A stretch of 64,000 nucleotides of DNA from an uncultured Prevotella sp. (GCA_947164965.1 CAMUYR010000009.1:8072-72071); one strand, 5' to 3'; positions 15,826-38,666 are shown, counted from the stretch's first letter. Notes: generated by a model not told the origin, from the sequence alone. Translations and numbers: made by a program.

Positions 15826-17898
15826 TTATTGCCACAGCTTGATGACTCCTCCGACGACAAGCATGCGTCCGGGGGAGTAAAGGGCGTATTTGCGAGTAGA
15901 CGAGTCTATCCGCCTGTCGACCTTATCGAAGATGTTGTCGATACCGATGACGGGCTTGAACACAACCCATCGGCCACACTGGATGGTGTGGGTGGTATGC
16001 AGGTTCCAGACGCCGAAGCCCGGGGCATCCTCGTAGTCGGGATAGTAGGTCTTCGACTGCAGACGTCCGTTCAGATTGACATTCAGCGCATAGCGACCCC
16101 AAGAGTGATGATAGTTGGCGGCGATGGTGGCGGCATGACGGATGCTGCGCTCCAGTAGCGTCCACTCGTCGCCACTCTTGGTGCGGGCATAGGTGTAGAC
16201 GTAGTTGGCAGAGAGGTTGAAGCCTGGGAAGATGTTGGCTGACACATTGAGCTGCAGGCCTTTGACGTCGCCCTTGTCGCTGTTCTGATAGAGCGCATAG
16301 CTCACCATCTTGCTGGCCTGATCCTGCGTCATCTCAGGGAATTCTTGCATGAGCATCGTCCGGCTGGCATCGTCGATACTGATATTCTGTTTGATGACCA
16401 TATCGTTGATGCGGTTCAGATAGCCCGTCACGCTCACAGCGATCACCTCGTCGCGATATTCGGCGTTCAGCGAGAAGTAGTTGCTCTTCTCAGGTTTCAG
16501 ATTCTTATTGCCAAAACTGATTTGTGCCTTACCGCGATTCACGCTGAAGTAGTGATAGTATAACTCATCAAGACCTGGGGCGCGGAATCCGGCAGAGTAG
16601 GTGGCACGGAAACGGAAATTGCCTGGGGCATACATCAGCGTCACCTTAGGCGTCAGGTGGTTGTTGAACGTCTCGTGGTGCGTCAGACGGAGACCGAGGG
16701 TGGCTGTGAAGTCCTTGAACAGCTTCTGCTCGTGCTGGGCATAGGCTGCAAGCGAATAGACGTGCTGATTGATATTTCCGCTGGTTGCCGTCAGATAGTC
16801 CTTACGCCAGTCGGCACCAAAGATGGTGGTAGAATGGCCTGTCAGTCCGAGGATGGCCTTCAGTTCGCCGTCCATAGAGCGCTGCTTCTTCGACTGGACA
16901 TAATCGCCAATGGCATTGCTCTTAGTTTCTACATCGTATTCCTTGCCATAGCGGAAACGGTCGACGGTGAAGTCGGCCTGCAACGAATTCTTGCTGTTGA
17001 ATTTATAGATGCCGCCCAGGTTCCAGCGGAATCCCTTATAGCGCATCTCGTAGTCGGTACCGCCTGTGACGTCGTTTCTGGTCTCAGGGCGGTCGGTTAT
17101 CTTATATGAATAGTCTAAGCCTGCATTGAGTGCAATGTGTTGGTTGGGGGTATAGGTGAATTTCTGTCCGATAATGTTTGAACGATAGCCTGTAAAGAAA
17201 GGGGCTATGGTCTGTTGTGTCTCTGTGTCGGAGCCTTTCTTATACTCTAAATCGGTGGTCTGATAGCTGTCGGCACGGTCGTGGGTAAACGACGTGTAGG
17301 AGCCGAAGCCATTCTTATAGATGTCGAGCGTGACGGCCTCTGTCAGCACGCCGTGACCGCTCACCTTGGTGTCGCTGGTAACGCTGACGAGATTCTGTGT
17401 AGGCTGGTCGGTGATGATGTTGATGACACCCGCAATGGCATCCGATCCATAGAGCGATGACGCTGCCCCATCGAGCACCTCGATACGCTTGACGCGCGAC
17501 ATGTTGATGCGGTTGAGGTCGACATTGTTGGAGATGTCGCCAGTGAGTTTCTGACCATTGATCAGAATAAGGATATACTTGTTGCCCAATCCGTTCAGAC
17601 GCAGGAAGGTACCCATGGAGTTGGGCGCCATAGAGGCCTGTGGCATCATGCGTGTCAAGGCGGCATCGAAGGTTGCTATGCCCTGTTCGCTGATTTCCTG
17701 CGAAGAAAGTACACGGACGGGTGTGGCGGTCGACTTGAGACGCTGGTGATGGCCTGAGCCGGTGACTACCACTGGGTTGAGATTATACGTGCGACTGGTC
17801 ATCGACGAGTCGCGATGTTCCATTTGATGGATTTGGGAAAAAGCGGCACCCCCCGAGAGGAGTGCCACTGCTAATACAATTAGCTTTAAATAACGCAT
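15826..17898 (-). CDS. TonB-dependent receptor (second in the riboswitch operon)
   Basis: VVVTGS TonB-box region; RIEVLDGAASSLYGSDAIAGVINIIT plug; NLKPEKS. Confidence 0.9.
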   Translation of the reverse strand: MRYLKLIVLAVALLSGGAAFSQIHQMEHRDSSMTSRTYNLNPVVVTGSGHHQRLKSTATPVRVLSSQEISEQGIATFDAALTRMMPQASMAPNSMGTFLRLNGLGNKYILILINGQKLTGDISNNVDLNRINMSRVKRIEVLDGAASSLYGSDAIAGVINIITDQPTQNLVSVTSDTKVSGHGVLTEAVTLDIYKNGFGSYTSFTHDRADSYQTTDLEYKKGSDTETQQTIAPFFTGYRSNIIGQKFTYTPNQHIALNAGLDYSYKITDRPETRNDVTGGTDYEMRYKGFRWNLGGIYKFNSKNSLQADFTVDRFRYGKEYDVETKSNAIGDYVQSKKQRSMDGELKAILGLTGHSTTIFGADWRKDYLTATSGNINQHVYSLAAYAQHEQKLFKDFTATLGLRLTHHETFNNHLTPKVTLMYAPGNFRFRATYSAGFRAPGLDELYYHYFSVNRGKAQISFGNKNLKPEKSNYFSLNAEYRDEVIAVSVTGYLNRINDMVIKQNISIDDASRTMLMQEFPEMTQDQASKMVSYALYQNSDKGDVKGLQLNVSANIFPGFNLSANYVYTYARTKSGDEWTLLERSIRHAATIAANYHHSWGRYALNVNLNGRLQSKTYYPDYEDAPGFGVWNLHTTHTIQCGRWVVFKPVIGIDNIFDKVDRRIDSSTRKYALYSPGRMLVVGGVIKLWQ

Positions 17899-17907
17899 GA
17901 GAGAGGG

Positions 17908-19068
17908 TTATTCTTCAGGATTCTTTGAGTGGTAGTATTCAAGAGGAGCACCGTTGATGGCATCCTGGGTGTGGTTTATCCAGATCTGACGGATCTTAGG
18001 CAATTCGAGCAGACCGTACTCAATCATCGTCGAGTTGTCGCACTCGTAGCCCAGGTGATGGAAGTACATCTTCCAAGAAGTGTCCTCGACCTCGCCCTCT
18101 TCGTTAGGTGTGAAGCCTACGCCTTCCTGCCAGTTGTCGTCATCGTCGCCAGCCATATCGTTGTGACCGTGGTCGCCATCGATAGACATGAGCGGTGTGC
18201 AATATACCTTACCACTGGTGATGCCAGCAGCCACCATACGGGCATAGACATTGGTCTTGAAGTTGTCCATCATATCAACGGTTCCTACGAAGTAGTTCTT
18301 GCTGTACTTCTGCAGCTCGGTCTCCAGTTCGGTGTAGCGAACGTTAGCCTTATAGGTGTCGTACTCATCGGGGTTACCATGACCCATGAAAGCGACAACA
18401 GCATTGGCTGCCTTGTCACCATAGAGTGCATCGAGCTCCTTGGCAACAGATTTCACATCTTCCTCAGCATCCTGCAACAGGGGCACACCGAGCTTCAGGG
18501 TTACACCAGCCAGATAGGCATCGTCGAGGTCGCCATTGGCATTGTTGGCGAAGTCCTTGATGTAGTTGATAACGCGGGTGTACTCCTCGCCGGGAATCAC
18601 CTGCAGCGACTGGACAACAATCTCCTCATACTGCACACCCTCGGCAGCAAAGGCGTTGAGCCAGAAGGGAGGTGCATAGTAGTTGCGGGAAACACCGTTC
18701 TCACCGGCAGCGGCACGGTTGATACAGATGGCTGATGAGTAGCTCAGGAATACGTCGTAGCCGGCGAATGCATTCTTGTAGGCATCAATCGTTGTGTCGA
18801 ATGCATTGAAGCCCTGTTCCCATGTGCAACCGAAGGCAACGAGCAGAATAACCTTCTTGTTCTTCTTGTTAGCTTTCACGTGATCGGTAACAGCTTTCTG
18901 ATAGCGTGACCAGTTATTGTCCTGTGGCACTTCCACAACGACCTCTACTTCCGTCTCGACAGGAACTTCTACGATTTTCTCCACTTCTTTTTCCTTTTCG
19001 CAGGAAGCGAGACCCATGGTGAGGCAAACGGCTGCGAATGCCATCACGAAATACTTAATCTTCTTCAT
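17908..19068 (-). CDS. cbiK: CbiK-family chelatase lipoprotein
   Basis: Lipobox LAS-C with acidic residues after the Cys; ILLVAFG, MGHG and PLM..GDH..NDM motifs; start placed at MKKIKY. Confidence 0.8.
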   Translation of the reverse strand: MKKIKYFVMAFAAVCLTMGLASCEKEKEVEKIVEVPVETEVEVVVEVPQDNNWSRYQKAVTDHVKANKKNKKVILLVAFGCTWEQGFNAFDTTIDAYKNAFAGYDVFLSYSSAICINRAAAGENGVSRNYYAPPFWLNAFAAEGVQYEEIVVQSLQVIPGEEYTRVINYIKDFANNANGDLDDAYLAGVTLKLGVPLLQDAEEDVKSVAKELDALYGDKAANAVVAFMGHGNPDEYDTYKANVRYTELETELQKYSKNYFVGTVDMMDNFKTNVYARMVAAGITSGKVYCTPLMSIDGDHGHNDMAGDDDDNWQEGVGFTPNEEGEVEDTSWKMYFHHLGYECDNSTMIEYGLLELPKIRQIWINHTQDAINGAPLEYYHSKNPEE

Positions 19069-21208
19069 TGTTACTTGATTTAAAATTAGACTTATTGTTA
19101 GTAAACTTAAGTTTCTTGCCTTGTGCAAAGCGAATGGTCAGCGTGCCATAGACGGTGCGACCTGGGGTGGTAGTGCCCAAGTGCAGACCATGAGGCGTGC
19201 GGTCGACATAGTTGAAGATATTGTCGATGCCTGCCTCAAGACGGAACAGCCACTTCTTGCTGACGGGGAACTCGTGGTTGGTGGATATGCGCCACGTCTG
19301 ATAGCCCTTGCCATCGCCATTTATCTGATAATAGCGCTTCGACGACATGCGACCATAAAGACCAACACCCATGTGATAGGCCGACGAGAAGTCGTGGTTC
19401 CACGTGAGCAGCCAGCTGCCCTTATGGTGGGCCATACCATCGATGACGACATCGATAAGACGGTCGTGGTTGGTGTCGTACTTCTTGGCATCGGTATCCA
19501 GATAGCTATAGCTGGCACCCACCATCCACTCGCGGTTCAGACGATAGCGAATGCTGACGTCGATGCCCTTGGTCTCGGCTGTTTCCAGATTCTGATACTG
19601 GCGTGTCTTCCTGGGGTCGTACTTCACGATATACTCAGCGGGAGCCTGACTGTTGGGGATGGTGACAAGCGTAATCATATCCTTCACCTTGTTGATATAT
19701 CCCGTCACCGTGACGTTCAGTCCCTGCCAGTTGTATTCGCCACTCACCGCATAGTAGTTGGAGGTCTGAGGCTTCAGATTCTCGTTGCCCAGATAGAGAT
19801 AGGTGGCATTCATGTATTTCACATAGCGATAATACAATTCCTTGGGGGTAGGGGTCTTGAAACCCTGACTCCACGTGGCACGCAGACGGATATTGTCGCC
19901 CAGCGAGAGCATGCCGGATATCTTAGGCGAAAGGTTGGTGCCGAACTGTACGTTATGGTTCAGACGCAGACCGCCAGTGATGTTCATAGCGACCTTCGGA
20001 CTGAAGGTATAGCTGAACTCATCCTGCACGTAGGTAGCCTCGGTATTGTCTCTGGCTACACCGCCTTCCACACGCATGGGAGCCTCCAGATAGTCGTAAC
20101 GCCATTCTAAACCCGCACTCAGACGATTGTTGTAGGGTAGGGTGAAGATGCCCTTCATATGGGCCATCATACGGCGCTGATCGCTCTGCAGCTCTTCATC
20201 GCCAGGGAAGTAGGGATAGTAAGGGGTGAAGTTGCCATGAGGGTCATAACCATCAGTCAGTGTGGTATCCGTATAATTATAATAGTACGCGTGACGATCC
20301 CAGTTGACGTCGAGTGTCACCTGGTCGTTCTTGTTCAGTTTCCACTTACCACCAGCAGCCAGACTCTGATTGCGATAAGCCATATCGTAGGTCTTCACGT
20401 CGACGGCAGCATACTTACCGCTGGGGCGATAGATACGTTTCCAATACGTTGAGCCCTCGGCATAGAGTTCCAGACGCTTCGTGGGTTCGTAGGTGAGACG
20501 CTCGGACACTTGCCAACTGGTATGCCTATTGACCGTCATATTACGGGAGTCTTCTATCAGGAACTCCGTCTGCTTGGGGTCTTCCGTAGCGGTGTTCTGC
20601 CAACCATCGGAGTGCTGCAATTGGAAATTGGTATAGCTCTTCACCTTGCCAATGGCAATGCCTATGCCGTTGTGCTGGCGGATATCGCCGTAGCTGCCAC
20701 CACGTGTGCTGTTTTCGAAGAGCAGTCCCTCGTTGTGCTTTTTCGTGATGATGTTTACCACACCGGCAATGGCATCGGAGCCATAGAGGGCACTCGAGGC
20801 ACCCTTGACAATCTCAATCTTCTCAATGTTCTGGGGATCGATGAGCGAGAGGTCGTTCTGTCCACCCACATCGCCATGAATGCGCTTGCCGTCGATGAGC
20901 ACCAGGATATAGTCGTTCCCTAAGCCGTTCATCTGCATCTGCGAGCCCATGTCGTCCTGCGAGAAAGCAAACGACGCCGTAAGACCTGCGAGGATATCCT
21001 CCAGACTCTTACCACCATAGTTGCGCAGCATCTTCTGCGTGATGACCTCCGTTTGCACAGGGGCATTCTTCAGCAAGTGCTGGGTACCAGTACCCGTCAC
21101 CACTACTTCTTGCAAACTGTCGGAGCGCCAAATGTCGCTTTGTGCCTCGACAGACGCGACTGCACATAAAGCCAGCAATCCTACTGTCAGTAATCTTTTC
21201 ATTAGCAT
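19055..21208 (-). CDS. btuB: BtuB-like TonB-dependent receptor
   Basis: EVVVTGTGT; KIEIVKGASSALYGSDAIAG; first gene after the cobalamin riboswitch. Confidence 0.85.
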   Translation of the reverse strand: MLMKRLLTVGLLALCAVASVEAQSDIWRSDSLQEVVVTGTGTQHLLKNAPVQTEVITQKMLRNYGGKSLEDILAGLTASFAFSQDDMGSQMQMNGLGNDYILVLIDGKRIHGDVGGQNDLSLIDPQNIEKIEIVKGASSALYGSDAIAGVVNIITKKHNEGLLFENSTRGGSYGDIRQHNGIGIAIGKVKSYTNFQLQHSDGWQNTATEDPKQTEFLIEDSRNMTVNRHTSWQVSERLTYEPTKRLELYAEGSTYWKRIYRPSGKYAAVDVKTYDMAYRNQSLAAGGKWKLNKNDQVTLDVNWDRHAYYYNYTDTTLTDGYDPHGNFTPYYPYFPGDEELQSDQRRMMAHMKGIFTLPYNNRLSAGLEWRYDYLEAPMRVEGGVARDNTEATYVQDEFSYTFSPKVAMNITGGLRLNHNVQFGTNLSPKISGMLSLGDNIRLRATWSQGFKTPTPKELYYRYVKYMNATYLYLGNENLKPQTSNYYAVSGEYNWQGLNVTVTGYINKVKDMITLVTIPNSQAPAEYIVKYDPRKTRQYQNLETAETKGIDVSIRYRLNREWMVGASYSYLDTDAKKYDTNHDRLIDVVIDGMAHHKGSWLLTWNHDFSSAYHMGVGLYGRMSSKRYYQINGDGKGYQTWRISTNHEFPVSKKWLFRLEAGIDNIFNYVDRTPHGLHLGTTTPGRTVYGTLTIRFAQGKKLKFTNNKSNFKSSNNEED

Positions 21209-21257
21209 GTCTTGTCTTCCGCTACCGCATAATCCTGTACGGGCGTACTCATCGTTA

Positions 21258-21425
21258 TCAGGCAGGTATTCTGGCTCTCCCCAATCTGCTTTACCTTCCC
21301 GAGCTTGTGCTCAGTGGCGTTATACAAGCAGACCTTTCAAAGGGGGATTACAGCTGCAGGTACAGCTCCGGATTTGCACCGGATTCCCTTACATCATGGC
21401 GGCATCGGCCACCAGATTGCCATTT
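21258..21425 (-). ncRNA. Cobalamin (B12) riboswitch
   Basis: Minus strand reads AGGGAATCCGGTGCAAATCCGGAGCTGTACCTGCAGCTGTAA...GCCACTG...GGGAAGG...GAGCCAGAATACCTGCC; promoter TATCTTTG at 21441-21434. Confidence 0.9.
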
Positions 21426-21509
21426 TATTGCGGCAAAGATACAACTTTTTTCTGTTGATTGTGCATAATTAACGGATTTTTTTTAATTTTGCACAAAAAT
21501 CATCTCAAG

Positions 21510-22169
21510 ATGGCATCGAAAACAGCATTTCTGATAGCAGCACCAACCAGTGGCTCAGGCAAAACGACGATTGCCCGAGGACTGATGAAACTGTTGACGG
21601 ACAAGGGTTATCGGGTTCAGCCTTTCAAGTGTGGACCTGATTATATCGACACCAAATTCCACGAGGCAGTATGTGGACGCCCTTCTGTCAATCTCGATAC
21701 GTTTATGGCAACGCCAGAACATATCAGGGAATTGTTTCATCGCTATGGCGACGATGCTGACGTGTGTATCGTAGAAGGTATGATGGGACTCTACGATGGC
21801 TACGATCGTGAACGGGGCTCGTCGTACGAGATAGCCCGCGAGCTGGATATCCCCGTGGTGCTGGTGGTCGATGCGAAGTCTGCCGCCTATTCTATGGCAG
21901 CACTCATTGCCGGATTCGTCAATTACAGGAAAGACGTCCGCATCAGCGGTCTTATATTTAATAAGGTGGGGAGCGAGCGCCACTTCGCCATGCTGCAACA
22001 GGTATGCGACGATTTAGGTATAGCCTGTCTGGGCTATCTGCCGAAGCAGGCAGCGCTGGAACAAGGCTCGCGCTATCTGGGACTCGATTTTTCGCAGAGA
22101 CCTGAAACCCAGCAACTTGTAGAACGCTTAGAACAGAACGTAAGATGGGAGAAACTGCTAGAATTGTAA
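21510..22169 (+). CDS. cbiA: Cobyrinate a,c-diamide synthase, N-terminal synthetase half (gene split)
   Basis: SGSGKTT, FKCGPDYID, VEGMMGLYDG; stops before the GATase domain. Confidence 0.8.
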   Translation: MASKTAFLIAAPTSGSGKTTIARGLMKLLTDKGYRVQPFKCGPDYIDTKFHEAVCGRPSVNLDTFMATPEHIRELFHRYGDDADVCIVEGMMGLYDGYDRERGSSYEIARELDIPVVLVVDAKSAAYSMAALIAGFVNYRKDVRISGLIFNKVGSERHFAMLQQVCDDLGIACLGYLPKQAALEQGSRYLGLDFSQRPETQQLVERLEQNVRWEKLLEL

Positions 22170-22738
22170 TAGCCCGCAATGCGGAGGCGTTCTCCTTTAT
22201 CTATCAGGAGAATATCGACCGATTTGAGCATGTCTCGTTTTTCGATCCCGAGACGGATGTGCCTTGTCTTGACGATGCCGATCTGTTATACCTGCCTGGA
22301 GGCTACCCTGAGAAACATCTGGAGGCGCTGGTGGCTAACGAGGCTTGCCGCAAAACTATCAGGGACTATGCTGAGCGAGGTGGAAGGATTCAGGCTGAAT
22401 GCGGAGGTATGATGTATCTCTGCGAGAAGATAGTGACTGACGACGGTGAGTATCCGATGTGTGGCGTGCTGCCTTACGCTATTACGGCCCGCAAGGCTGA
22501 CAGGAAGCTGTCGCTGGGTTATCGCAGGTTTATGCTGGATGGTAGGGAATATCGTGGACATGAGTTTCATTATACGCAGTTCCTCACCCCACCCCTTGCC
22601 CATCCCCTTCAAGGGGAGGGGAATGGGGAGGGGTCAGTTACGCAGGTCTATAACGCCAAGGGCGAGCCTGTTGACACCCCTGTGTTGAAGTATAAGAATG
22701 TGCTGGCGAGCTATACGCATCTGTATATTATTGGATAA
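22145..22738 (+). CDS. cbiA: Cobyrinate a,c-diamide synthase, C-terminal glutamine amidotransferase half (-1 frame)
   Basis: ARNAEAFSFIY, YLPGGYPE, AECGGMMYL, RGHEFHY, ASYTHLY. Confidence 0.75.
   Translation: MGETARIVIARNAEAFSFIYQENIDRFEHVSFFDPETDVPCLDDADLLYLPGGYPEKHLEALVANEACRKTIRDYAERGGRIQAECGGMMYLCEKIVTDDGEYPMCGVLPYAITARKADRKLSLGYRRFMLDGREYRGHEFHYTQFLTPPLAHPLQGEGNGEGSVTQVYNAKGEPVDTPVLKYKNVLASYTHLYIIG
22582..22633. repeat. CCCCTCCCC/GGGGAGGGG-type palindromic element in frame in cbiA-C
   Basis: cctcaccccaccccttgcccatccccttcaaggggaggggaatggggagggg; encodes LTPPLAHPLQGEGNGEG. Confidence 0.75.
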
Positions 22739-22784: not shown

Positions 22785-22812
22785 GGACAATGGACAATTG
22801 ATAATTGAGAAT
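22785..22812. repeat. Heptamer array just upstream of the cbiP ATG
   Basis: GGACAAT GGACAAT TGATAAT TGAGAAT. Confidence 0.75.
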
Positions 22813-22813
22813 T

Positions 22814-24247
22814 ATGAAGTTGCTTCATCCCATTATGCTGGCAGGTACAGGCAGTGACGTAGGAAAAAGCGTCATTGCAGCAGCATTGTGTCGTATCTTT
22901 AAGCAGGACGGCTATCATCCCGCTCCCTTCAAGGCCCAGAATATGGCACTCAACTCGTATGCCACACCCGAGGGTTTGGAGATAGGTCGTGCCCAAGCCG
23001 TGCAGGCAGAAGCCGCAGGAATTGCGTGCCATACGGATATGAATCCGCTGTTGCTGAAACCTCAGAGCGACCATATATCACAAGTGGTGCTGAACGGTAA
23101 ACCATTAGGCAATCGCGATGCCTATGATTACTGGAGACGAGGAACATCAGATATCGATTTCCGTAAGGAGGTATGTGATGCTTTCGATCGTTTGTTGGCA
23201 CGCTATAATCCCATCGTGATGGAGGGTGCTGGCAGCATTTCAGAAATCAATCTGAGGGATACGGATTTGGTGAATCTTCCGATGGCGCGACATGCCAAAG
23301 CCGATGTGATTCTGGTGGGCGATATTGATCGTGGCGGTGTGTTTGCTTCCGTCTATGGCAGCATCATGTTGCAGACGCCTGAAGACCGCCAACTCATCAA
23401 GGGTATCGTCATCAATAAGTTTCGTGGCGATATGCGGCTCTTCGACAAAGGGCGTAAGATGTTGGAGGATATCTGTGGTGTTCCCGTCTTGGGTGTCGTC
23501 CCTTATTACAAAGATATCTATATCGAAGAAGAAGATTCGGTGAGTCTTGAGAAAAAGCAGCGCGAGTTGGCAGAAGGCAAAGTAAACGTCGCTGTAGTGC
23601 TGTTGCGGCATATCTCTAACTTTACCGATTTCGATAGGCTGGAGCGCGACCCTCGCGTCAATTTGTTCTATACGAATAACGTCAGCGATATAAACCATGC
23701 AGATATTATCATCCTGCCTGGTACCAAAGCTACACTGGACGATCTGCTGGAGTTGCGTCGTAATGGTTGTGCACAGGCTATTATCCGTGCACATCGTGAC
23801 GGAAAGATGGTGATAGGAATCTGTGGTGGCTATCAGATGCTGGGACAGATGGTTAGCGACCCGGATGGCATCGAGGGCACTATTACCAGTTTGCCTGGTC
23901 TTGGCCTTCTTCCTATACAAACCACGATGACTCCTACGAAGACGACACGCCAAGTGACGTTCCAATTTGAAGGCGAGACTTGTCAGGGTTACGAGATACA
24001 CCAGGGCGTGAGCGATACTGATGAGGCTATCATACAGACAGACCATTGCTTGGGCACCTATATTCACGGTTTCCTGGATAATGCTCCCGTCATTGAACAC
24101 CTGCTAAAAGCTAAGAGCCAAAAGCCAATAGCCAATAGCATCAGCTATGCTGCCTTTAAAGAAGAACAATACGACAAGCTGGCAGCGCATGTGCGTCAGT
24201 ATGTAGACATTCCACAACTCTATCAGATTCTACAGAACCATGAATGA
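22814..24247 (+). CDS. cbiP: Cobyric acid synthase
   Basis: GTGSDVGKS, FKAQNMALNS, EGAGS, GICGGYQMLG, GTYIHG. Confidence 0.95.
   Translation: MKLLHPIMLAGTGSDVGKSVIAAALCRIFKQDGYHPAPFKAQNMALNSYATPEGLEIGRAQAVQAEAAGIACHTDMNPLLLKPQSDHISQVVLNGKPLGNRDAYDYWRRGTSDIDFRKEVCDAFDRLLARYNPIVMEGAGSISEINLRDTDLVNLPMARHAKADVILVGDIDRGGVFASVYGSIMLQTPEDRQLIKGIVINKFRGDMRLFDKGRKMLEDICGVPVLGVVPYYKDIYIEEEDSVSLEKKQRELAEGKVNVAVVLLRHISNFTDFDRLERDPRVNLFYTNNVSDINHADIIILPGTKATLDDLLELRRNGCAQAIIRAHRDGKMVIGICGGYQMLGQMVSDPDGIEGTITSLPGLGLLPIQTTMTPTKTTRQVTFQFEGETCQGYEIHQGVSDTDEAIIQTDHCLGTYIHGFLDNAPVIEHLLKAKSQKPIANSISYAAFKEEQYDKLAAHVRQYVDIPQLYQILQNHE
24103..24139. repeat. Heptamer array GCYAA(A/G/T)A x5, in frame in cbiP
   Basis: Encodes LKAKSQKPIANS. 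Confidence 0.85.
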
Positions 24248-25178
24248 ATGGTTGGTCATATTACCTTTGTTGTTAGGATGGTTGCTCGACCTGGTGTTGG
24301 GCGATCCCACGTGGCTTCCGCATCCCATTGTGTGGTTTGGCAAAGCTATTGCCTTCTGTGAGCATCATCTGAACAAGGGTCAGCACCGGAAAGTGAAAGG
24401 GGCTCTTGTGGCCATAGGACTCATCGCGATAACCTTCGCCATAGGATTAATTATCAATTGTCAATTATCAATTATCAATTTTGTAATAGTCTTCTTTTGT
24501 TTAGCAGGCACCACACTGATTAGGGAAGTAAGAGAGGTGTTCCGTGCCGTAGACCGTTCGCTGGAGGAGGGTAGGCGACAGGTGGCTCGCATTGTAGGTC
24601 GTGATACATCAGAGCTCTCTGCTCAGGAGATTCGCACAGCAGCACTGGAGACGTTGGCAGAGAATCTGAGTGACGGTGTGATAGCCCCCTTATTCTGGCT
24701 TGCTATACTGGGTGTTCCTGGCATGCTGGCATATAAGATGGTGAATACCCTCGACTCGATGATAGGCTATCGCACAGAACGCTATAAGGACTTTGGGTGT
24801 TGGGCAGCTCATATCGACGATATCGCTAATTATATTCCTGCCCGTCTCACGGCTCTGCTCATGATAATTGGCTATAGGCTATTAGCCATTAGCGATTGGC
24901 CAAAAGCCAAAAACCAAAAGCTAATAGCTTTCGTGTGGCGTTATGGTCGCAATCATGCTAGTCCTAATAGCGGATATCCTGAGGCGGCATTAGCAGGTAT
25001 TCTCAACTGTCGTTTTGGTGGTCCACACTATTACTTTGGCGAACTATTCGATAAACCGTATATCGGCGAGAATGATCGTGAACTGACGACTGACGACATG
25101 AAAAAAGCCGTTCTCATTAATCGAACGGCAGAAGTCATGATGGTAATACTGACAGGCTTGTGCCTGTGGTTTATCTGA
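24240..25178 (+). CDS. cbiB: Adenosylcobinamide-phosphate synthase
   Basis: GDP.WLPHPIVWFG, IVGRDT, ETLAENLSDG, SPNSGYPEAA. Confidence 0.95.
   Translation: MNEWLVILPLLLGWLLDLVLGDPTWLPHPIVWFGKAIAFCEHHLNKGQHRKVKGALVAIGLIAITFAIGLIINCQLSIINFVIVFFCLAGTTLIREVREVFRAVDRSLEEGRRQVARIVGRDTSELSAQEIRTAALETLAENLSDGVIAPLFWLAILGVPGMLAYKMVNTLDSMIGYRTERYKDFGCWAAHIDDIANYIPARLTALLMIIGYRLLAISDWPKAKNQKLIAFVWRYGRNHASPNSGYPEAALAGILNCRFGGPHYYFGELFDKPYIGENDRELTTDDMKKAVLINRTAEVMMVILTGLCLWFI
24447..24481. repeat. Heptamer array TCAATT(A/G) x5, in frame in cbiB
   Basis: Encodes LIINCQLSIINF. Confidence 0.85.
24867..24928. repeat. Head-to-head pair of heptamer arrays, in frame in cbiB
   Basis: ATT(A/G)GCN units followed by GCYAA(A/T)A units; encodes IGYRLLAISDWPKAKNQKLIA. 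Confidence 0.8.
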
Positions 25179-25956
25179 TAACAGCACAGACGACCAAGCA
25201 AACAGCTAACTCTACCAACAGACAGACGGCGCCACAACAGTCACCAGTATAGCCACGCAGCCGGTTCCATATCAGCAGATAGAGGAAATACATGACGATG
25301 CAAGGCAGGAAGATAACCATCTCCCAAGGCAGTCCTGTGTACCAGAGAAAGGCAGCCATCGGTAACAACCCCTGGATGGCAAGACTGACGCCTGCCTTCC
25401 AATCCATTTTCCGATAGACGGTCTTATTCTTGGCTGTTTCTTCTGTACGGGCATAGGGCATCATAAGAATCAGCTGACTAGCCACCATCTTGCTATAAGG
25501 GTCGGCAGCCAGAATAGTGAGTGCAGCCATTTCTGCCGACATCGAATAAAGGGTAGCTCCTAAAAGCAGTTCATACATGATAAGGCCCAACACACCATAA
25601 GTGCCGATATGCGAATCCTTCATAATGTCGAGGATGCGTTGGCGATCTTTACCACCACCTCCGAAGCCATCGAGGAAATCGGCTAATCCGTCTTCGTGAA
25701 GAGCTCCCGTAATAAGCAGGCGTACTACGATGGCAGCAACGACAACGACGGGGTATGAGATCACCATACTGCCGAAGTAAAGTGTGGCAGCCATTGCACC
25801 ACCCGTCAGCCATCCCGTCAAGGGCCAGTGTTCTACAACTGTTTTGTAACAATCCTTTGATGGTTCATGCAGTCGCCAGAAGGGCAGACGGGTGAAGAAG
25901 ATGAAGGCTGCCCATATACGGTCGTACCAGTGTGTCTGGTCTAATTTTATTTCCAT
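25171..25956 (-). CDS. cobS: Adenosylcobinamide-GDP ribazoletransferase
   Basis: FFTRLP, TGALHEDGLADFLDG, IMKDSHIGTYG, GYTGDCCGA. Confidence 0.95.
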   Translation of the reverse strand: MEIKLDQTHWYDRIWAAFIFFTRLPFWRLHEPSKDCYKTVVEHWPLTGWLTGGAMAATLYFGSMVISYPVVVVAAIVVRLLITGALHEDGLADFLDGFGGGGKDRQRILDIMKDSHIGTYGVLGLIMYELLLGATLYSMSAEMAALTILAADPYSKMVASQLILMMPYARTEETAKNKTVYRKMDWKAGVSLAIQGLLPMAAFLWYTGLPWEMVIFLPCIVMYFLYLLIWNRLRGYTGDCCGAVCLLVELAVCLVVCAVIR

Positions 25957-25959
25957 CGT

Positions 25960-27009
25960 TCAGAAGTATTTCGTGATGTTTGCATTATCGAAATTGTTCA
26001 TTTCATTGATCATACGGATAGCAGAGTCAATGATAGGATAAGCACAAAGCGCTCCTGTTCCCTCGCCAAGTCTTAATCCTAAGCTCAGCAACGGTTTGGC
26101 ATCAATAATATCCAGCATCTTCCGATGTCCACTCTCGTCGCCACAATGGGTGAAAATCATATAGTCTTGCGAGGCAGGATAAAGTTGGATAGCAGCGAGT
26201 GCACAAGCCGTCATGATAAAGCCGTCAACCAATATCACCAGATGGCATTCTGCAGCCCGCAACATAGCTCCGATAGCAGCAATCATCTCGAAACCGCCGA
26301 AGATTATTAGAGGTGAGAGAGGAGAGGTGAGAGGTGAGAGATATGATTGGTGGTGGGATAGCGCTCTGGAAAGAATCTCGTATTTATGTCTGATTCCGTC
26401 ATTGTTAAGTCCAGCTCCAGCACCAATACAATCTTTTAAAGGAATATTGCCAAACAGATGCATCCAGATGCTGGAGGGTGAGGTATTGCCAATACCCATC
26501 TCACCAATACACAGAATCTTGCAACCCTCGGCGATACAGTCGTCGACAAGTTGGACACCTGTTTCTATCGCCTTGTCGTACTCTTCTTCCGTCATCGCGG
26601 GTTCATAGAGAAAGTTCTTAGTGCCACGAGCAATCTTACGATTGATAATGCCATCGATATGACTCAAATCGTAATCCACTCCTACATCGACAATACGAAG
26701 TTTAAAACCATGCTGACGACAGAACATGTTCACGCCTCCACCACCATGGGTAAAGTTAATCATTTGTTGCCATGTCACTTCGCGTGGCGATATGCTGACA
26801 CCTTCACGTTCGATGCCATGATCTCCACCCAGCAACAGATGGCAAGGGTGGGATAATTCAGGGCTAAGCGTCTGCTGAATCAGACATATCTGCGTTGCCA
26901 GTTCTTCCAAACGTCCCAGTGAGCCTTTGGGCTTATTCAGATTGTCTATCTTCGTCTGAATGGCAGAGTGTAGTGTCCTGTCAGGTGTTTCTATCTTAAA
27001 CGTTCTCAT
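25960..27009 (-). CDS. cobT: Nicotinate-nucleotide--dimethylbenzimidazole phosphoribosyltransferase
   Basis: KPKGSLGRLEE, GEMGIGNTS, LRLGEGTGA. Confidence 0.95.
   Translation of the reverse strand: MRTFKIETPDRTLHSAIQTKIDNLNKPKGSLGRLEELATQICLIQQTLSPELSHPCHLLLGGDHGIEREGVSISPREVTWQQMINFTHGGGGVNMFCRQHGFKLRIVDVGVDYDLSHIDGIINRKIARGTKNFLYEPAMTEEEYDKAIETGVQLVDDCIAEGCKILCIGEMGIGNTSPSSIWMHLFGNIPLKDCIGAGAGLNNDGIRHKYEILSRALSHHQSYLSPLTSPLSPLIIFGGFEMIAAIGAMLRAAECHLVILVDGFIMTACALAAIQLYPASQDYMIFTHCGDESGHRKMLDIIDAKPLLSLGLRLGEGTGALCAYPIIDSAIRMINEMNNFDNANITKYF
26309..26343. repeat. Heptamer array AGAGGTG x5, in frame in cobT
   Basis: Encodes YLSPLTSPLS. Confidence 0.85.
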
Positions 27010-27039
27010 CACTTTTCACTTGTCACTTTTCACTTTCAC
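27009..27039. repeat. Heptamer array TCACTT(T/G) x4 spanning the cobU stop and cobT start
   Basis: Encodes VKVKSDK*. Confidence 0.85.
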
Positions 27040-27534
27040 AGCTATGCCACTAACCATGAGTATTACCTCATCGGCTTTTGAAGCGATATACTGATTCATC
27101 CAACCTTCAAGATCGGTGAATTTTCTTTGGATGGCGTTGTCGCTCACACCGCCACTGCCTATCTCGTTGGTTACGAAGATATAGGTGGCATCTTGAGCTG
27201 TGAAACGGTCGAACTCAGCTTTGACAGTTTCTAGTGTCTTCTCAACATCTGATGTCTCGAAAAAGAAATTAGTCAACCAGAGCGTCACACAATCAATGAC
27301 CACCACACGTCCTGTGAGGTCGTGTCTGCTCAAGTATTTCTCTTCTTCAATATTCGTCCATTGAGGGCCTCGCCGTTCCTGATGTTTTCGCACCCGTTCA
27401 CGAAACTCATCATCCCAGATATGTGCCGTAGCCACATAGACGGGATGGTCCGAAAGACTGAGCGCAAGATGCTCTGCCTGACTGCTCTTGCCTGAGCGTT
27501 GCCCACCTGTTATGAGAATGATTTTTCTCTCCAC
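27016..27534 (-). CDS. cobU: Adenosylcobinamide kinase/guanylyltransferase
   Basis: GGQRSGKSS, RVRKHQERR, IDCVTLWLTN, VTNEIGSG. Confidence 0.95.
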   Translation of the reverse strand: MERKIILITGGQRSGKSSQAEHLALSLSDHPVYVATAHIWDDEFRERVRKHQERRGPQWTNIEEEKYLSRHDLTGRVVVIDCVTLWLTNFFFETSDVEKTLETVKAEFDRFTAQDATYIFVTNEIGSGGVSDNAIQRKFTDLEGWMNQYIASKADEVILMVSGIAVKVKSDK

Positions 27535-27559
27535 TTTCGTTTTTTTATGATTTATGCTG

Positions 27560-27586
27560 CAAAGTTAATCATTTTTTGTAACTTTG
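27560..27586. promoter_or_regulatory. Back-to-back TAACTTTG promoter boxes (cobU-T-S and cbiH operons)
   Basis: CAAAGTTA at 27560-27567 and TAACTTTG at 27579-27586. Confidence 0.7.
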
Positions 27587-27594
27587 CAGCAGTT

Positions 27595-28995
27595 ATGAAG
27601 AAAATAATTGTTGCAGGCATAGGTCCAGGTAGTCGTGAGGATATCACACCTGCGGTTTTGGAAGCAGTCAAAGAGGCTGATGTGGTAGTAGGTTACAAGT
27701 ATTATTTCCAGTTTGTGGATCAATACCTGAGACCTGGCTGTGAGTGTGTGGATACGGGTATGAAGAAAGAACGCGAACGTGCAGAGCAGGCTTTCCTCTT
27801 AGCAGAGCAAGACAAAACTGTCGTTGTGATTTCTTCTGGCGATGCAGGCATCTACGGCATGGCGCCACTCATCTACGAGATGAAGCAGACACACCAATCG
27901 GATGTAGAGATAGTCACCCTACCAGGTATCTCCGCTTTTCAGAAAGCTGCCTCACTATTAGGCGCGCCTATTGGCCATGACCTGTGCATTATTTCTTTAT
28001 CCGATTTGATGACACCTTGGGAGGTGATAGAAAAGAGGATCAAGGCTGCTGCCGTTGGCGACTTCGTGACAGCTATCTATAATCCCAAGTCGCATGGTCG
28101 CTATTGGCAGTTATATCGTACGCAGGAGCTGTTCCTGAAGTATCGTTCTGCAGAAACACCTGTAGGCTATGTGCGACAGGCTGGACGCGAAGAACAAACT
28201 ATCAACATCACCACGCTGGAAACTTTCGATTCTGAAGATGTTGATATGTTCACCGTCATCCTTATTGGTAATTCGCAATCATACATAGCTGATGACAAGA
28301 TGATTACCCCCAGAGGGTATTATCGTGAAGAGAACGAGGAGGCCGTCAAGCCTGGACAGCAGATTATGATGAATTCTTTCCGTACGATAGAAAGCGAGTT
28401 GCGTAATAAGGATATTCCGTTAGGACGCAAGTGGGCTCTGCTGCATGCCATCCATACAACTGCTGATTTTGATATGGAACGCATTCTCTATACGGACGAC
28501 AATGCTGTAGAAACGTTATATCAAAAGGTGTGCGATGGCAGCCTGAAGACTATTATCACTGATGTGACGATGGTAACCAGTGGTATTCGCAAGGGCGCAC
28601 TCCAACGTCTGGGCATAGAGGCAAAATGCTACTTGGGCGATGCTCGTGTGGCAGAATTTGCCTCCGCCAATAATATCACTCGTACACAGGCAGGCATCCG
28701 CTTGGCTGTCGAGGAACATCCTGATGCCCTCTTCGCCTTTGGCAATGCACCAACGGCACTGATGGAACTCTGCGATCTGATTCGTAAGGGGAAAGCTCAT
28801 CCTGCAGGTATCATAGCTGCTCCTGTAGGTTTTGTGCATGTTCGTGAATCGAAGCATATGGTGAAACCCTTCAGAGATATTCCAAAGATCATCATTGAGG
28901 GCCGTAAGGGAGGTAGCAATCTGGCTGCTACACTTTGTAATGCCATCATGACTTTCGATGATGCTGCTCAACTTAAACCTGGACGCGACCTTTAG
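27595..28995 (+). CDS. cbiH: CbiH (precorrin-3B C17-methyltransferase) fused to CbiC (precorrin-8X methylmutase)
   Basis: GIGPG, SSGDAGIYGM, YNPKS; then IHTTADFD, GNAPTAL, GRKGGSNLAA. Confidence 0.9.
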   Translation: MKKIIVAGIGPGSREDITPAVLEAVKEADVVVGYKYYFQFVDQYLRPGCECVDTGMKKERERAEQAFLLAEQDKTVVVISSGDAGIYGMAPLIYEMKQTHQSDVEIVTLPGISAFQKAASLLGAPIGHDLCIISLSDLMTPWEVIEKRIKAAAVGDFVTAIYNPKSHGRYWQLYRTQELFLKYRSAETPVGYVRQAGREEQTINITTLETFDSEDVDMFTVILIGNSQSYIADDKMITPRGYYREENEEAVKPGQQIMMNSFRTIESELRNKDIPLGRKWALLHAIHTTADFDMERILYTDDNAVETLYQKVCDGSLKTIITDVTMVTSGIRKGALQRLGIEAKCYLGDARVAEFASANNITRTQAGIRLAVEEHPDALFAFGNAPTALMELCDLIRKGKAHPAGIIAAPVGFVHVRESKHMVKPFRDIPKIIIEGRKGGSNLAATLCNAIMTFDDAAQLKPGRDL

Positions 28996-28996
28996 G

Positions 28997-29026
28997 TAAT
29001 TGATAATTGACAATTGAAAATTGATA
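28997..29026. repeat. Heptamer array (T/C/A)AATTGA x4 forming the whole intergenic spacer
   Basis: TAATTGA TAATTGA CAATTGA AAATTGA, then ATG at 29027. Confidence 0.85.
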
Positions 29027-30253
29027 ATGAGATTTATCGTAATAGGTATCACAGACCATCCACAACCTTGGTTCCCACCAGAAGTGATGGAAATCATCAG
29101 GCAGGGTAGAGTGTTCTCAGGAGGCAAGCGCCACCATGAGATTGTAGCATCCTTACTGCCAGAGAATGCAGAGTGGATAGATATCACTGTTCCACTTGAT
29201 GCTGTCTTTGAACAGTATCAGCTAATAGCCAACAGCCAACAGCCAAAAGCCTCACTCATCGTCTTCGCCTCTGGCGATCCGTTGTTCTTTGGCTTTGCCA
29301 ATACCATCAAGCGTAAGATGCCTGAGGCAGAAATCGTCGTCTATCCGACATTTAATTCTTTACAGATGCTGGCCCATCGGCTTGTGATGCCTTATCACGA
29401 TATGCGTATTGTATCGTTGACAGGACGCCCTTGGGCTGAGTTTGATAGATCCCTTATAGAGAGAGCAGAGAAGATAGGTGTTCTTACAGATAAGGAACAC
29501 ACGCCAGCTGCTATTGCCCAGCGAATGATAGACTTTGGTTATACCCATTATCAGATGTGCGTAGGCGAACATCTGGGTAATCCTTCTCACGAAAAAGTGA
29601 CGACGCTTACCCTCGACGAAGCAGCGCATCGAAATTTCTCAATGCCCAATTGCGTGATAGTAGAAGCCAATAGCCAACAGCCAATAGCCAACAGCCAATA
29701 CGGTATTCCTGACAGCGAGTTTACACTACTCGATGGTCGCGAGAAGATGATTACCAAGATGCCCATCCGATTGCTGGCGCTGCAAGCGCTTCATCTTCCT
29801 AAGAAAAAAGTGCTTTGGGATATCGGATTTTGTACAGGCAGCATCTCTATCGAGGCTCGTCTCCAGTTCCCTCATCTGCAGATTGAAGCCTTCGAGATTC
29901 GTCCTGAATGTGAAGCAATCATCCACGAGAATGCTCGCAAGTTTAGGGCTCCAGGCATCAACATCCACATGGGTGATTTTCTTTCAGTATGCTGCGATAC
30001 TATAGCTGCTCCTGATGCTGTATTCATAGGAGGGCATGGTGGTCACCTGAAGGAAATCATGGGAAAGGTATTACGATATCTTGCTCCTGATGGCTGTATC
30101 GTGATGAACAGCGTAAAGGCTCCCAAGGTGCTTACTGATAGCCATCAGCTATGGGATGAGGCCTGTTTGGAATTAAGCCTTCAGCAGGAGCCCTCTCTCA
30201 GAATCCAACTCAACGATTATCATCCAATAGAAATACTTAAAGCTTACAAATGA
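29027..30253 (+). CDS. cbiE: Bifunctional CbiE/CbiT precorrin-6Y methyltransferase/decarboxylase
   Basis: ASGDPLFFG, MITKMPIR, LWDIGFCTGSISIE, AVFIGG. Confidence 0.9.
   Translation: MRFIVIGITDHPQPWFPPEVMEIIRQGRVFSGGKRHHEIVASLLPENAEWIDITVPLDAVFEQYQLIANSQQPKASLIVFASGDPLFFGFANTIKRKMPEAEIVVYPTFNSLQMLAHRLVMPYHDMRIVSLTGRPWAEFDRSLIERAEKIGVLTDKEHTPAAIAQRMIDFGYTHYQMCVGEHLGNPSHEKVTTLTLDEAAHRNFSMPNCVIVEANSQQPIANSQYGIPDSEFTLLDGREKMITKMPIRLLALQALHLPKKKVLWDIGFCTGSISIEARLQFPHLQIEAFEIRPECEAIIHENARKFRAPGINIHMGDFLSVCCDTIAAPDAVFIGGHGGHLKEIMGKVLRYLAPDGCIVMNSVKAPKVLTDSHQLWDEACLELSLQQEPSLRIQLNDYHPIEILKAYK
29221..29250. repeat. Heptamer array GCYAANA x4, in frame in cbiET
   Basis: Encodes LIANSQQPKA. Confidence 0.85.
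29666..29700. repeat. Heptamer array GCCAA(T/C)A x5 (strictly alternating), in frame in cbiET
   Basis: Encodes ANSQQPIANSQY. Confidence 0.9.
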
Positions 30254-30254
30254 T

Positions 30255-30527
30255 ATGAAAACAAAACATGTACAGTATGAAACAAAGGGCACGTGCTCAA
30301 AACTGATTGACGTGACAGCTGATGAGAATAATGTTATTCAGCAGGTATTCTTCCTTGGTGGTTGCAATGGTAACCTTCAGGGTGTTAGTCAGTTAGTACG
30401 CGGACAACACATCGACGATGTCATCAAGCGTCTCGATGGTATTCGCTGTGGCACTAAAGTGACTTCGTGTCCAGACCAGTTGTGTAGGGCATTGGAACAG
30501 TTGAAACAGGCTCCGATTGACGATTAA
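30255..30527 (+). CDS. TIGR03905/TSCPD-domain protein
   Basis: KGTCSK, GGCNGNL, GIRCG.K.TSCPDQL. Confidence 0.8.
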   Translation: MKTKHVQYETKGTCSKLIDVTADENNVIQQVFFLGGCNGNLQGVSQLVRGQHIDDVIKRLDGIRCGTKVTSCPDQLCRALEQLKQAPIDD

Positions 30528-30542
30528 TAACGACAGAAGAAG

Positions 30543-32327
30543 ATGAATATTGCCATCATACAAATCAGTGAGACAGGTAAGGATATTGCCATTTTACTAC
30601 AGCAGGAACTCGGCGCTACTATCATTAAACGTAGCAATGTCGGGATACAATGGAAAAAATATGATGCCTTTGTGTTTATAGGTGCTATGGGCATCTGCGT
30701 GCGTACTATTGCTCCTTATGTGAATGACAAACACGAAGACCCTGCAGTGGTGTGTGTTGATAGTATGGGGCTGAATGCTATCTCTGTACTATCTGGACAT
30801 ATCGGAGGTGCGAACAATCTGGCTCACGAGGTAGCTGCTCTCATAGGGGCACGAGAGGTGATTACCACTCAAAGTGACAATGCAGGATTATGGGCACTCG
30901 ACACTTTTGCAGAGCGATTCCATTGGAATATCGCCAGCGATGACGATATGAACGAATGTATCTTTGCATTTGTCAGTTGCAAGCCGACAGCCCTGTTGAT
31001 GGATATCTGCGACGAGGGTACTGACTATCTGGAGAAGACATTGCCAGAACACGTGACAATCGTCAAGAGTCTTGAAGAGGTAGACCCTGAGAAATTCAGT
31101 CTGTTCATCATGGTGACGCCATACAATCTTTGTGCTCCCTATGGTGTGCTTGAGTTGCATTTCGTACCTATGATAGCCTCGTTAGGTTTTGGTTTAGCCC
31201 ATCATCCTGATGACTATGAGTACATCTACGATGAGATTGACGAGGCGATGAGTCAGATAGGTGTTTTGCCTTGCTACAAGCGCTATTGTACTATTGATGT
31301 GAAGCAAGACGAGGAGTTCTGTGAGATGCTCGTTGATGATTTAGGTGAAGAACTAGTATTCTACACAGCAGAGCAATTGGCTAAGGTTGAAGTGCCTAAT
31401 CCCAGTACGACAGTAGAGAAGCATGTTGGCACACCAAGCGTATGTGAGGCTGCAGCAATTCTGGGTTCCAATAATGGTAAATTGATTGTACCCAAGATGA
31501 AGGGGAAAAATTGGACTGCAGCTTTGGCCATTCCCTATGAGAACCTGAGGGAGAGAACTGGTCATATCGAGATTGTTGGTGCTGGTCCTGGAGACCCTGA
31601 TCTGGTTAGCGTGCGAGGTCGCAAGATGTTGGAACGTGCAGACCTGATTCTTTATGCAGGTTCTTTGGTTCCTAAGACGCTCACAGAGTGTCATAAGCCA
31701 GGAGCCGTCGTGCGTTCTTCTGCTGATATGAATCTTGAGGAACAGTGTGCGCTGATGAAGCAGTTCTACGACCAGGGAAAGTATATCGTCCGTCTGCATA
31801 CAGGCGACCCTTGTATCTTTGGTGCCATACAGGAGCAGATGGCATTTTTCGATCAGAACGGCATGCACTATCACATTACGCCAGGCATCTCGTCGTTTCT
31901 CGCTGCAGCCGCTGAATTGCAGAGTCAGTTTACGATTCCAGAGCGTTGTCAGACTATTATCCTGACACGAGGTGAAGGTCGTACGCCGATGCCTGAGAAA
32001 GAACAGTTGCATCTGTTGGCTAAGAGCCAGAGTACGATGTGTATCTTCCTCTCAGCCTCCATTGTCGATGACGTTCAAAAAGAATTGTTGATGGAATATC
32101 CAGAGGATACTCCCGTAGCTGCCTGTTACCATTTGACGTGGCCTGATCAGAAGATCTATCGCGGAAAGCTTAAAGACCTCGCCAAGATAGTTCACGACAA
32201 TCATCTCACCCTTACCACAATGCTGGTGGTGGGCGAAGCTATTGACAACCGCCAAGGCTTGAGCGAACTCTATTCGAAGCATTTCACTCATCTCTTCCGT
32301 CAAGGTGACGATGAGCAGGCTTCTTAA
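30543..32327 (+). CDS. cbiF: CbiG fused to CbiF (precorrin-4 C11-methyltransferase)
   Basis: DPAVV..D, LSGHIGGAN, SVCEAAA; then VGAGPGDPDL, RLHTGDP. Confidence 0.9.
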   Translation: MNIAIIQISETGKDIAILLQQELGATIIKRSNVGIQWKKYDAFVFIGAMGICVRTIAPYVNDKHEDPAVVCVDSMGLNAISVLSGHIGGANNLAHEVAALIGAREVITTQSDNAGLWALDTFAERFHWNIASDDDMNECIFAFVSCKPTALLMDICDEGTDYLEKTLPEHVTIVKSLEEVDPEKFSLFIMVTPYNLCAPYGVLELHFVPMIASLGFGLAHHPDDYEYIYDEIDEAMSQIGVLPCYKRYCTIDVKQDEEFCEMLVDDLGEELVFYTAEQLAKVEVPNPSTTVEKHVGTPSVCEAAAILGSNNGKLIVPKMKGKNWTAALAIPYENLRERTGHIEIVGAGPGDPDLVSVRGRKMLERADLILYAGSLVPKTLTECHKPGAVVRSSADMNLEEQCALMKQFYDQGKYIVRLHTGDPCIFGAIQEQMAFFDQNGMHYHITPGISSFLAAAAELQSQFTIPERCQTIILTRGEGRTPMPEKEQLHLLAKSQSTMCIFLSASIVDDVQKELLMEYPEDTPVAACYHLTWPDQKIYRGKLKDLAKIVHDNHLTLTTMLVVGEAIDNRQGLSELYSKHFTHLFRQGDDEQAS

Positions 32328-32352
32328 TCATATGATATTTGTATAGAACGAT

Positions 32353-37539: not shown

Positions 37540-37540
37540 G

Positions 37541-38653: not shown

Positions 38654-38666
38654 AATTCTCTTCCTG

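Follow-up and report, generated by a model that had tools for sequence, protein, structure and literature searches.

A cobalamin riboswitch operon with a CbiK-fold lipoprotein in a rumen Prevotella, a candidate entry route for a half-made corrin ring

Background

What might a chelatase-type lipoprotein do between two outer-membrane receptors, behind a B12 switch, in a bacterium whose corrin pathway lacks its first steps? The question is raised by a stretch of 64,000 nt from an uncultured Prevotella sp. (GCA_947164965.1 CAMUYR010000009.1:8072-72071), the whole of which is here called the window. On its minus strand, a cobalamin riboswitch and three genes form a predicted operon, encoding a TonB-dependent transporter (TBDT1), a long-form lipoprotein of the CbiK fold (CbiKL) and a second, distinct TonB-dependent transporter (TBDT2). 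The host is a rumen Prevotella-type bacterium, whose genome assembly (3.80 Mb, 81 contigs) is 93% complete. As described below, the core of the operon is conserved and accompanies corrin-ring genes, and on sequence grounds it appears the best candidate for bringing a half-made ring in from outside.

Comparisons were based on 201 genomes of the genus and 151 genomes of the family Prevotellaceae. Synteny around the riboswitch was surveyed at 31 Bacteroidia loci, 20 from the family sample and 11 named ones, including those of Xylanibacter ruminicola, Tannerella, Porphyromonas levii, P. somerae, Falsiporphyromonas, Alistipes, Dysgonamonadaceae and Saccharicrinis. Neighbouring genes were counted at 20 family-sample loci and in a second set of 57-58 named loci.

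Results

The operon consists of the following elements, in the order riboswitch, TBDT1, CbiKL and TBDT2, all on the minus strand:

21434..21441, minus strand: Bacteroidetes-type -7 promoter box, TAtcTTTG, read from the sequence, just upstream of the riboswitch
21244..21431, minus strand: cobalamin riboswitch aptamer (RF00174, 88.5 bits, E 1.6e-20, full model)
19055..21208, minus strand: TBDT1, IhtA-like TonB-dependent transporter, 717 aa, Plug and barrel Pfam domains
17908..19068, minus strand: CbiKL, long-form CbiK-fold lipoprotein, 386 aa from MKKIKYF, PF06180
15826..17898, minus strand: TBDT2, second distinct TonB-dependent transporter, 690 aa, Plug and barrel domains

All the parts named in a preliminary description of this DNA, namely a riboswitch ahead of two distinct TonB receptors flanking a CbiK, were thus recovered. 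The riboswitch, the sole Rfam match in the window, scores well above the gathering score of 31.5 bits. Its end lies 36 nt from the TBDT1 ATG, with no T-run in between, and no expression platform was evident upon minimum free energy folding of the leader (z -1.4). The octamer TAtcTTTG agrees with TAnnTTTG, the consensus of the Bacteroidetes -7 box; a scan for sigma-70 promoters and terminators returned no more sites than in shuffled sequence. The three genes are tightly packed, TBDT1 and CbiKL overlapping by 14 nt and CbiKL and TBDT2 being separated by 9 nt. The terminator scan revealed no terminator-like site on the minus strand between them, and a weak one at the TBDT2 stop codon.

CbiKL matches PF06180 with 135 bits, against a cutoff of 26.2, and has 3375 homologues in a large protein collection. 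Its predicted layout comprises a signal (residues 1-22), Cys23, a disordered acidic stalk reaching to about residue 50 and a chelatase fold (50-380). After the lipobox, LAS-C23, comes EKEKEVEKIVEVPVETEVEVVVEVPQ. The AF2 model (pLDDT 85) is below 50 at residues 15-47 and confident from about 50 to 380. The closest PDB entries, both by sequence and by fold, are 9b86 (FetB), 2xvx/2xvz and 1qgo; in Foldseek searches 9b86, 2xvz and 1qgo came out on top, with target-normalised TM of 0.87-0.88. Both catalytic histidine motifs, as anticipated in the preliminary description, are kept: FMGHG (H230) and GDHGHND (H300), equivalent to His145 and His207 of the S. enterica enzyme. Both are invariant in 24 relatives, and the same holds for the whole H230, D265, H300 set of the long form, in 24 sequences down to 33% identity. 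The putative middle metal ligand is an invariant aspartate, Asp265 (GTVD), where S. enterica CbiK has Glu175, a conservative change.

Export of CbiKL as a lipoprotein, predicted from its N-terminus, is supported: the lipobox, the acidic residues after the cysteine and the stalk, all proposed beforehand, are there, although the motif is not canonical. The residues from Cys23 onwards read C-E-K-E-K-E, acidic and different from CS(D/E)2, while most relatives have CSDDDD. Two surface-export signals have been tested in Bacteroides, CS(D/E)2 and K-(D/E)2 (PMC6222051); the CSDDDD of the relatives fits the first, the CEKEKE of the window fits loosely. The biosynthetic CbiK equivalog is a cytoplasmic enzyme working between SirC and CbiL, and CbiKL, with its lipoprotein signal, falls outside that definition.

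The synteny survey, proposed beforehand as a check, gave a consistent picture. In 31/31 loci, the gene of the CbiK homologue is preceded, at a distance of about 2.2-2.6 kb, by a cobalamin riboswitch on its own strand, and the core formed by riboswitch, TBDT1 and CbiKL was found in all of the Bacteroidia loci tested. An orthologue of TBDT1 (36-81% identity) is located directly upstream of the CbiK-like gene in 20/20 and 57/57 loci. Orthologues of TBDT2 (65-87% identity) directly follow CbiKL in only 5/20 and 20/58 loci, and are usually followed in turn by cbiHC, cbiET and cbiGF. Elsewhere, the place after CbiKL is taken by genes for a periplasmic binding protein and a PduO-type adenosyltransferase. 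TBDT1 is the conserved partner of the lipoprotein, and TBDT2 a clade-specific accessory. The idea of a capture module is partly supported, by the predicted export of the lipoprotein, its pairing with TBDT1, the riboswitch, the failure to find another chelatase homologue in the genome and the ties to cbi genes; the idea that the chelatase works with two receptors applies to this clade, and does not hold as a general rule.

TBDT2 shares only about 28-30% identity with receptors of the TBDT1 type. The matches of TBDT1 to the BtuB of its own genome are only short, weak and local. On TIGR01779, the model for TonB-dependent B12 receptors, TBDT1 and TBDT2 reach 122-148 bits, against a cutoff of 599.7 bits. 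The TBDT1 frame extends 23 residues beyond the usual C-terminal phenylalanine of the barrel (19055-19126, minus strand; …TLTIRF, then AQGKKLKFTNNKSNFKSSNNEED), and overlaps the start of the lipoprotein gene.

Presence of the module parallels that of the corrin-ring gene cbiH. The family count scored PF06180 and the genus count scored CbiKL itself; both describe a pattern, with no statistical test attached, among related genomes that are not independent:

Family, 151 genomes: CbiK homologue 57, CbiH 53, both 51, CbiK only 6, CbiH only 2, neither 92
Genus, 201 genomes: CbiKL 48, CbiH 52, both 46, CbiKL only 2, CbiH only 6, neither 147

The link is also visible at the level of gene order, cbiHC being found downstream on the same strand, within the examined flank, in 27/58 named loci. 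Co-occurrence and operon fusion with corrin-ring genes favour capture of a tetrapyrrole or of cobalt over capture of haem.

In the window itself, genes of the cobamide pathway lie next to the operon, starting with one divergent from it:

21510..22738, plus strand: cbiA, two overlapping open reading frames (21510-22169 and 22145-22738), matching NF002204 positions 3-210 and 234-419
22805..27534: cobQ and cbiB (plus strand), cobS, cobT and cobU (minus strand), late cobamide steps, NCBIfam equivalog matches
27499..35786, plus strand: corrin-ring genes cbiHC, cbiET, cbiGF and cbiJD, NCBIfam matches

The enzymes missing from this set are those that start the ring. No SUMT or CbiL was found genome-wide (TIGR01467, TIGR01469, PF00590), the methylase matches being only CbiH, CbiF and RsmI; the last of these, the fourth TP_methylase match (contig 4), was checked for being an overlooked CbiL or SUMT and proved to be RsmI, with 249 bits on TIGR00096. 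The absence of a cytoplasmic chelatase, first noticed for the cbi cluster of the window, extends to the whole genome, at its 93% completeness: CbiKL is the sole PF06180 match, and CbiX (PF01903) has none. No CbiM-type cobalt transporter was found in the genome either.

The cell does not appear to be a tetrapyrrole auxotroph, a possibility rejected upon finding a haem cluster on contig 18 (L151, 22000-38000) with hemN, hemG/Y, hemE, a hemA::hemC fusion (510 aa), hemD, hemB and hemL. Given hemA::C, hemD, hemB and hemL, uroporphyrinogen III can be made. As far as can be judged from the gene content, the gap is specific, and concerns C2/C7 methylation, C20 methylation and cytoplasmic cobalt insertion. 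Near the haem cluster lies a radical-SAM/SPASM gene that matches the AhbD and NirJ families weakly.

The gap is shared by related species. SUMT was found in 3/53 CbiH-positive genomes of the family (one below the curated cutoff) and in 4/52 of the genus, CbiL in 26/53 and 8/52, respectively. Since several genomes at 97-100% completeness lack both, the gap is a lineage trait rather than an assembly hole.

The halves of cbiA, ATPase (21510-22169) and glutamine amidotransferase (22145-22738), are in different frames. An assembly error was considered and rejected: a split with the same overlap, about 21 nt, recurs in three other species (L094, L108, L109). Halves in different frames are also found in L085, L087 and L104, and a single frame in 16 other loci; the arrangement looks like a conserved natural gene split.

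Cobamide uptake is already covered by a separate locus on contig 21, composed of a riboswitch, BtuB, DUF5074, DUF4465, BtuF and BtuC. This riboswitch is one of two further cobalamin riboswitches in the genome. The other, on contig 39 (L069, 15624-15808, minus strand), lies ahead of a 136-aa open reading frame with no Pfam match, followed by genes for a pectate lyase, a rubrerythrin and a beta-helix protein, an odd set for B12 control.

Two more genes of the window probably belong with the operon:

37541..38698, minus strand: periplasmic binding protein, IhtC/BtuF-like, 43% identical to the binding protein directly after CbiKL in locus L041
36505..37539, minus strand: FecCD/BtuC-type permease, NCBIfam BtuC-like match below cutoff

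They are probably the inner-membrane leg of the module, because the binding protein is closer to this operon-embedded protein than to the BtuF of its own genome, to which it is only 30% identical. A homologue of the binding protein adjoins the module in many loci, and the pair formed by permease and binding protein stands beside it in five of them (L077, L078, L080, L110, L116). In the window, the pair is 17 kb away from the operon.

Of the remaining neighbours, a gene for an MscS-like mechanosensitive channel (32353-34062, plus strand, 569 aa) is inserted between cbiGF and cbiJD, and a convergent gene at the operon's end (15180-15815, plus strand) encodes a small outer-membrane beta-barrel resembling the TDE1717 family, with a score under its cutoff.

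Throughout the family, CbiK homologues appear to be exported. N-termini were judged by eye and, wherever readable, begin with basic residues and have a hydrophobic core as well as a cleavage or lipobox motif; no homologue lacking a signal-like N-terminus was found among them. Three classes could be distinguished:

Short, high-scoring class: about 270-340 aa, ordinary signal peptide, His motifs kept
Long class: 345-420 aa, lipoprotein, mostly CSDDDD after the lipobox, His motifs kept
Degenerate class: about 290-330 aa, signal peptide, both His motifs lost

Members of the degenerate class were seen in five loci (L152-L155 and L157, in Prevotellaceae G077, G123, G142, G052 and G080). These low-scoring 290-330 aa matches had been considered as cytoplasmic enzymes, a view rejected on account of their signal-like N-termini and of the loss of both motifs; a role in the periplasm, as pseudo-chelatases or as binding proteins, is probable. 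Their existence indicates that metal-site residues decay where they are not needed, and are not kept by default.

The short class tends to co-occur with cbiL: among CbiH-positive genomes of the family, it was found in 18/26 of those with CbiL versus 4/27 of those without, most of the other CbiL-negative ones having the long form only. Both exported forms are found in tandem in the operon of one chromosome (G038; L039, 1459000-1474000), which reads riboswitch, receptor, cbiL, receptor, long lipoprotein CbiK and a second CbiK with an ordinary signal peptide, cbiL thus lying between the receptors.

Discussion

On the evidence of gene order and of sequence and fold matches, the locus is a variant of the P. 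gingivalis Iht system, made of the IhtA receptor, the IhtB/FetB lipoprotein and the IhtCDE ABC importer. Riboswitch, receptor and CbiK-fold lipoprotein come in the same order, with the receptor gene directly before the lipoprotein gene; FetB (9B86) is the top match of CbiKL in sequence and fold (E 8e-26, TM 0.88 on target); in relatives, the pair is accompanied by a binding protein and a permease; and the P. levii and P. somerae loci share the core. As a coenzyme-B12 riboswitch upstream of ihtA in the P. gingivalis ihtABCDE locus has already been reported (PMC3764172, citing Hirano 2012), the layout of riboswitch, receptor and lipoprotein is not new.

The locus also differs from Iht. CbiKL is about 30% identical to FetB and longer, 386 aa versus about 290, with an acidic stalk of roughly 30 residues, inserts near 316-331 and an Asp substituting for the Glu ligand. 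It is succeeded by a second receptor, and the ABC parts lie at a distance, with no adjacent ATPase gene, where Iht has its importer in the same operon. The P. gingivalis system has been read in terms of iron, haem or Mn-porphyrin handling: FetB is described as a CbiK homologue of the outer membrane that acts as a chelatase, its product, Mn-protoporphyrin, accumulating on the P. gingivalis surface (PMC13065792). Here, the genomic ties are to corrin-ring genes. What is new with respect to Iht is the long form with its stalk and Asp ligand, the second receptor, the dispersed ABC parts and the tie to a corrin pathway truncated at its front. No link of Iht-type modules to the feeding of a corrin pathway was found in the literature searched. 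P. gingivalis itself lacks the steps to precorrin-2 (Shelton et al., PMC6461909), and its partial corrin pathway has been an acknowledged puzzle since 2000 (PMC6461909).

Other known systems are less close. S. enterica CbiK (1QGO), the cytoplasmic sirohydrochlorin cobaltochelatase, shares the fold and both catalytic histidines, but has no signal peptide and is about 25% identical to CbiKL. D. vulgaris CbiK(P) (2XVX/2XVZ) is an exported class II chelatase of the same fold (TM 0.88); D. vulgaris reportedly has a cytoplasmic CbiK as well. Unlike CbiKL, CbiK(P) is soluble in the periplasm, neither a lipoprotein nor partnered by a TonB receptor. A B12 element has been described as controlling its gene along with cbiL and btuCDF (PMC545781), and the short signal-peptide CbiKs of Prevotellaceae resemble it. 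Bacteroides BtuB-BtuG(-BtuH) loci also combine riboswitch-controlled receptors, a surface lipoprotein and an ABC importer; in contrast, their lipoprotein is a beta-propeller or DUF4465, unrelated to the chelatase fold of CbiKL. No DUF5074 or DUF4465 gene is present in the operon described here, and no mention of a chelatase was found in the literature searched on the Bacteroides loci.

What, then, would this variant carry? We see about even chances that it is an Iht-type uptake front end, feeding a ring precursor made elsewhere, and probably loaded with cobalt outside the cytoplasm, into the truncated anaerobic B12 ring pathway. Judging from the known behaviour of its family, the riboswitch would permit expression when adenosylcobalamin is low. 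CbiKL, lipidated at Cys23 and probably flipped to the surface on its flexible acidic stalk, would capture a tetrapyrrole released by other organisms, possibly an isobacteriochlorin of the sirohydrochlorin/factor III type or an early cobalt-precorrin. Class II chelatases require no ATP, which makes chelation possible outside the cytoplasm, with FetB and the B12-regulated CbiK(P) of D. vulgaris as precedents, and CbiKL, with its His-Asp-His site, would most likely insert Co2+ there. The product would be handed to TBDT1, and in this clade to TBDT2 too, for TonB-driven passage; the binding protein and the permease (36505-38698) would bring it into the cytoplasm, where CbiH, CbiF, CbiG, CbiD, CbiJ, CbiET and CbiC could carry it on to cobyrinate. 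Feedback by B12 through the riboswitch fits a biosynthetic input. In favour of this reading are the conserved core, the ties to ring synthesis instead of salvage, a pathway gap that falls just where the module would act, the signal-like N-termini of the CbiK homologues, the invariant metal site of the long form and the separate locus already serving cobamide uptake.

Several points weigh against such a role. Genomes with no CbiL, the present one included, would have to receive a cargo already methylated at C20, or use another methyltransferase. CbiKL scores 97.3 bits on the cobaltochelatase CbiK equivalog NF047852, far from its cutoff of 400, and has Asp at the position of S. enterica Glu175. 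As CEKEKE departs from the tested export signals, the protein could face the periplasm. No ABC ATPase gene lies beside the permease of the window, the genome is 93% complete, and kinship among genomes makes the co-occurrence counts overstate their support.

A broader and more tentative proposal can be made, which we regard as possible although rather less than likely. In Prevotellaceae and their relatives, ring synthesis may be split between cells and across the envelope: other organisms would perform the first methylations, an exported CbiK would insert cobalt outside the cytoplasm, and the ring would then enter via a dedicated receptor, the long form acting on a ring already methylated at C20 (factor III type). 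This would explain why CbiL is usually lacking with the long form and present with the short one.

Among the alternatives to an intake of ring precursors, the one that survives best, although unlikely, has the operon scavenging finished or nearly finished corrinoids. CbiKL would be a non-catalytic surface binder in the role of BtuG/BtuH, for cobamides, cobinamide, cobyrinic or cobyric acid, its histidines binding cobalt axially, and TBDT1 and TBDT2 would be importers of the BtuB type. Riboswitch, TonB-dependent transporters and a BtuF-type binding protein are indeed what B12 importers have, a PduO-type adenosyltransferase gene lies within some operons of the module, and IhtA of P. gingivalis has been described as homologous to BtuB (PMC3764172). 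The TIGR01779 matches of both receptors, 122-148 bits, point the same way, but remain far under the cutoff. Moreover, scavenging would be needed most by non-producers, and CbiKL is found in 46/52 CbiH-positive versus 2/149 CbiH-negative genomes of the genus; the present genome already has its BtuB/BtuG-like/DUF4465/BtuFC locus, and the full chelatase triad is invariant.

That invariance of the metal ligands would also suit a device for cobalt alone, comparable to metal-piracy receptors, in which CbiKL binds Co2+ with its His-Asp-His site at the surface and passes the ion to TBDT1, while an unrecognised cytoplasmic enzyme performs the chelation. Cobalt importers are commonly under B12 feedback (PMC7689651), no CbiM-type transporter was found in the genome, and co-occurrence with the ring pathway suits the cobalt need of a producer. 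We nonetheless hold this to be quite doubtful: no cytoplasmic chelatase, SUMT or CbiL was found in the genome to make use of the cobalt, the whole tetrapyrrole-binding fold, modelled with high confidence, is kept though needless for an ion carrier, and the binding protein belongs with those of BtuF, haem or siderophore type.

A role in haem or iron handling, as proposed for P. gingivalis Iht, with CbiKL removing iron from haem or loading protoporphyrin with another metal and the receptors importing iron or porphyrin, is very improbable here. It draws on the closest solved relative being FetB/IhtB, to which haem binding and the activity of a reverse ferrochelatase or Mn-PPIX chelatase have been ascribed (PMC12094164, PMC13065792). 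CbiKL and FetB share only about 30% identity, however, and B12 riboswitch control in 31/31 loci, fusion of the module with cbi operons and its tracking of cbiH all argue otherwise; the full haem pathway of the host, from hemA to hemG/Y and hemN, also makes haem piracy less needed.

Least probable of all, indeed scarcely credible, is that ring genes and module are simply retained remnants of a once complete pathway, making nothing: the split cbiA and the three or four consecutive early steps missing would suit decay, but all reading frames are intact, three other species share the cbiA split, and the same gene set with no SUMT or CbiL is kept in dozens of species, at 40-80% identity and with invariant catalytic residues.

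Conclusion

Bacteroidota are counted almost entirely as B12 consumers. In rumen and gut Prevotellaceae, however, the ring genes travel with an exported chelatase and a receptor behind a B12 switch, and almost never with the enzymes that start the ring. This pattern suggests a possible primary role in corrin metabolism for Iht/FetB, a system studied as a device for iron and haem. It also points to a way for abundant bacteria of gut and rumen to complete B12, starting from intermediates that other organisms release, and such a route would bear on which organisms actually supply B12 to ruminants and gut communities.

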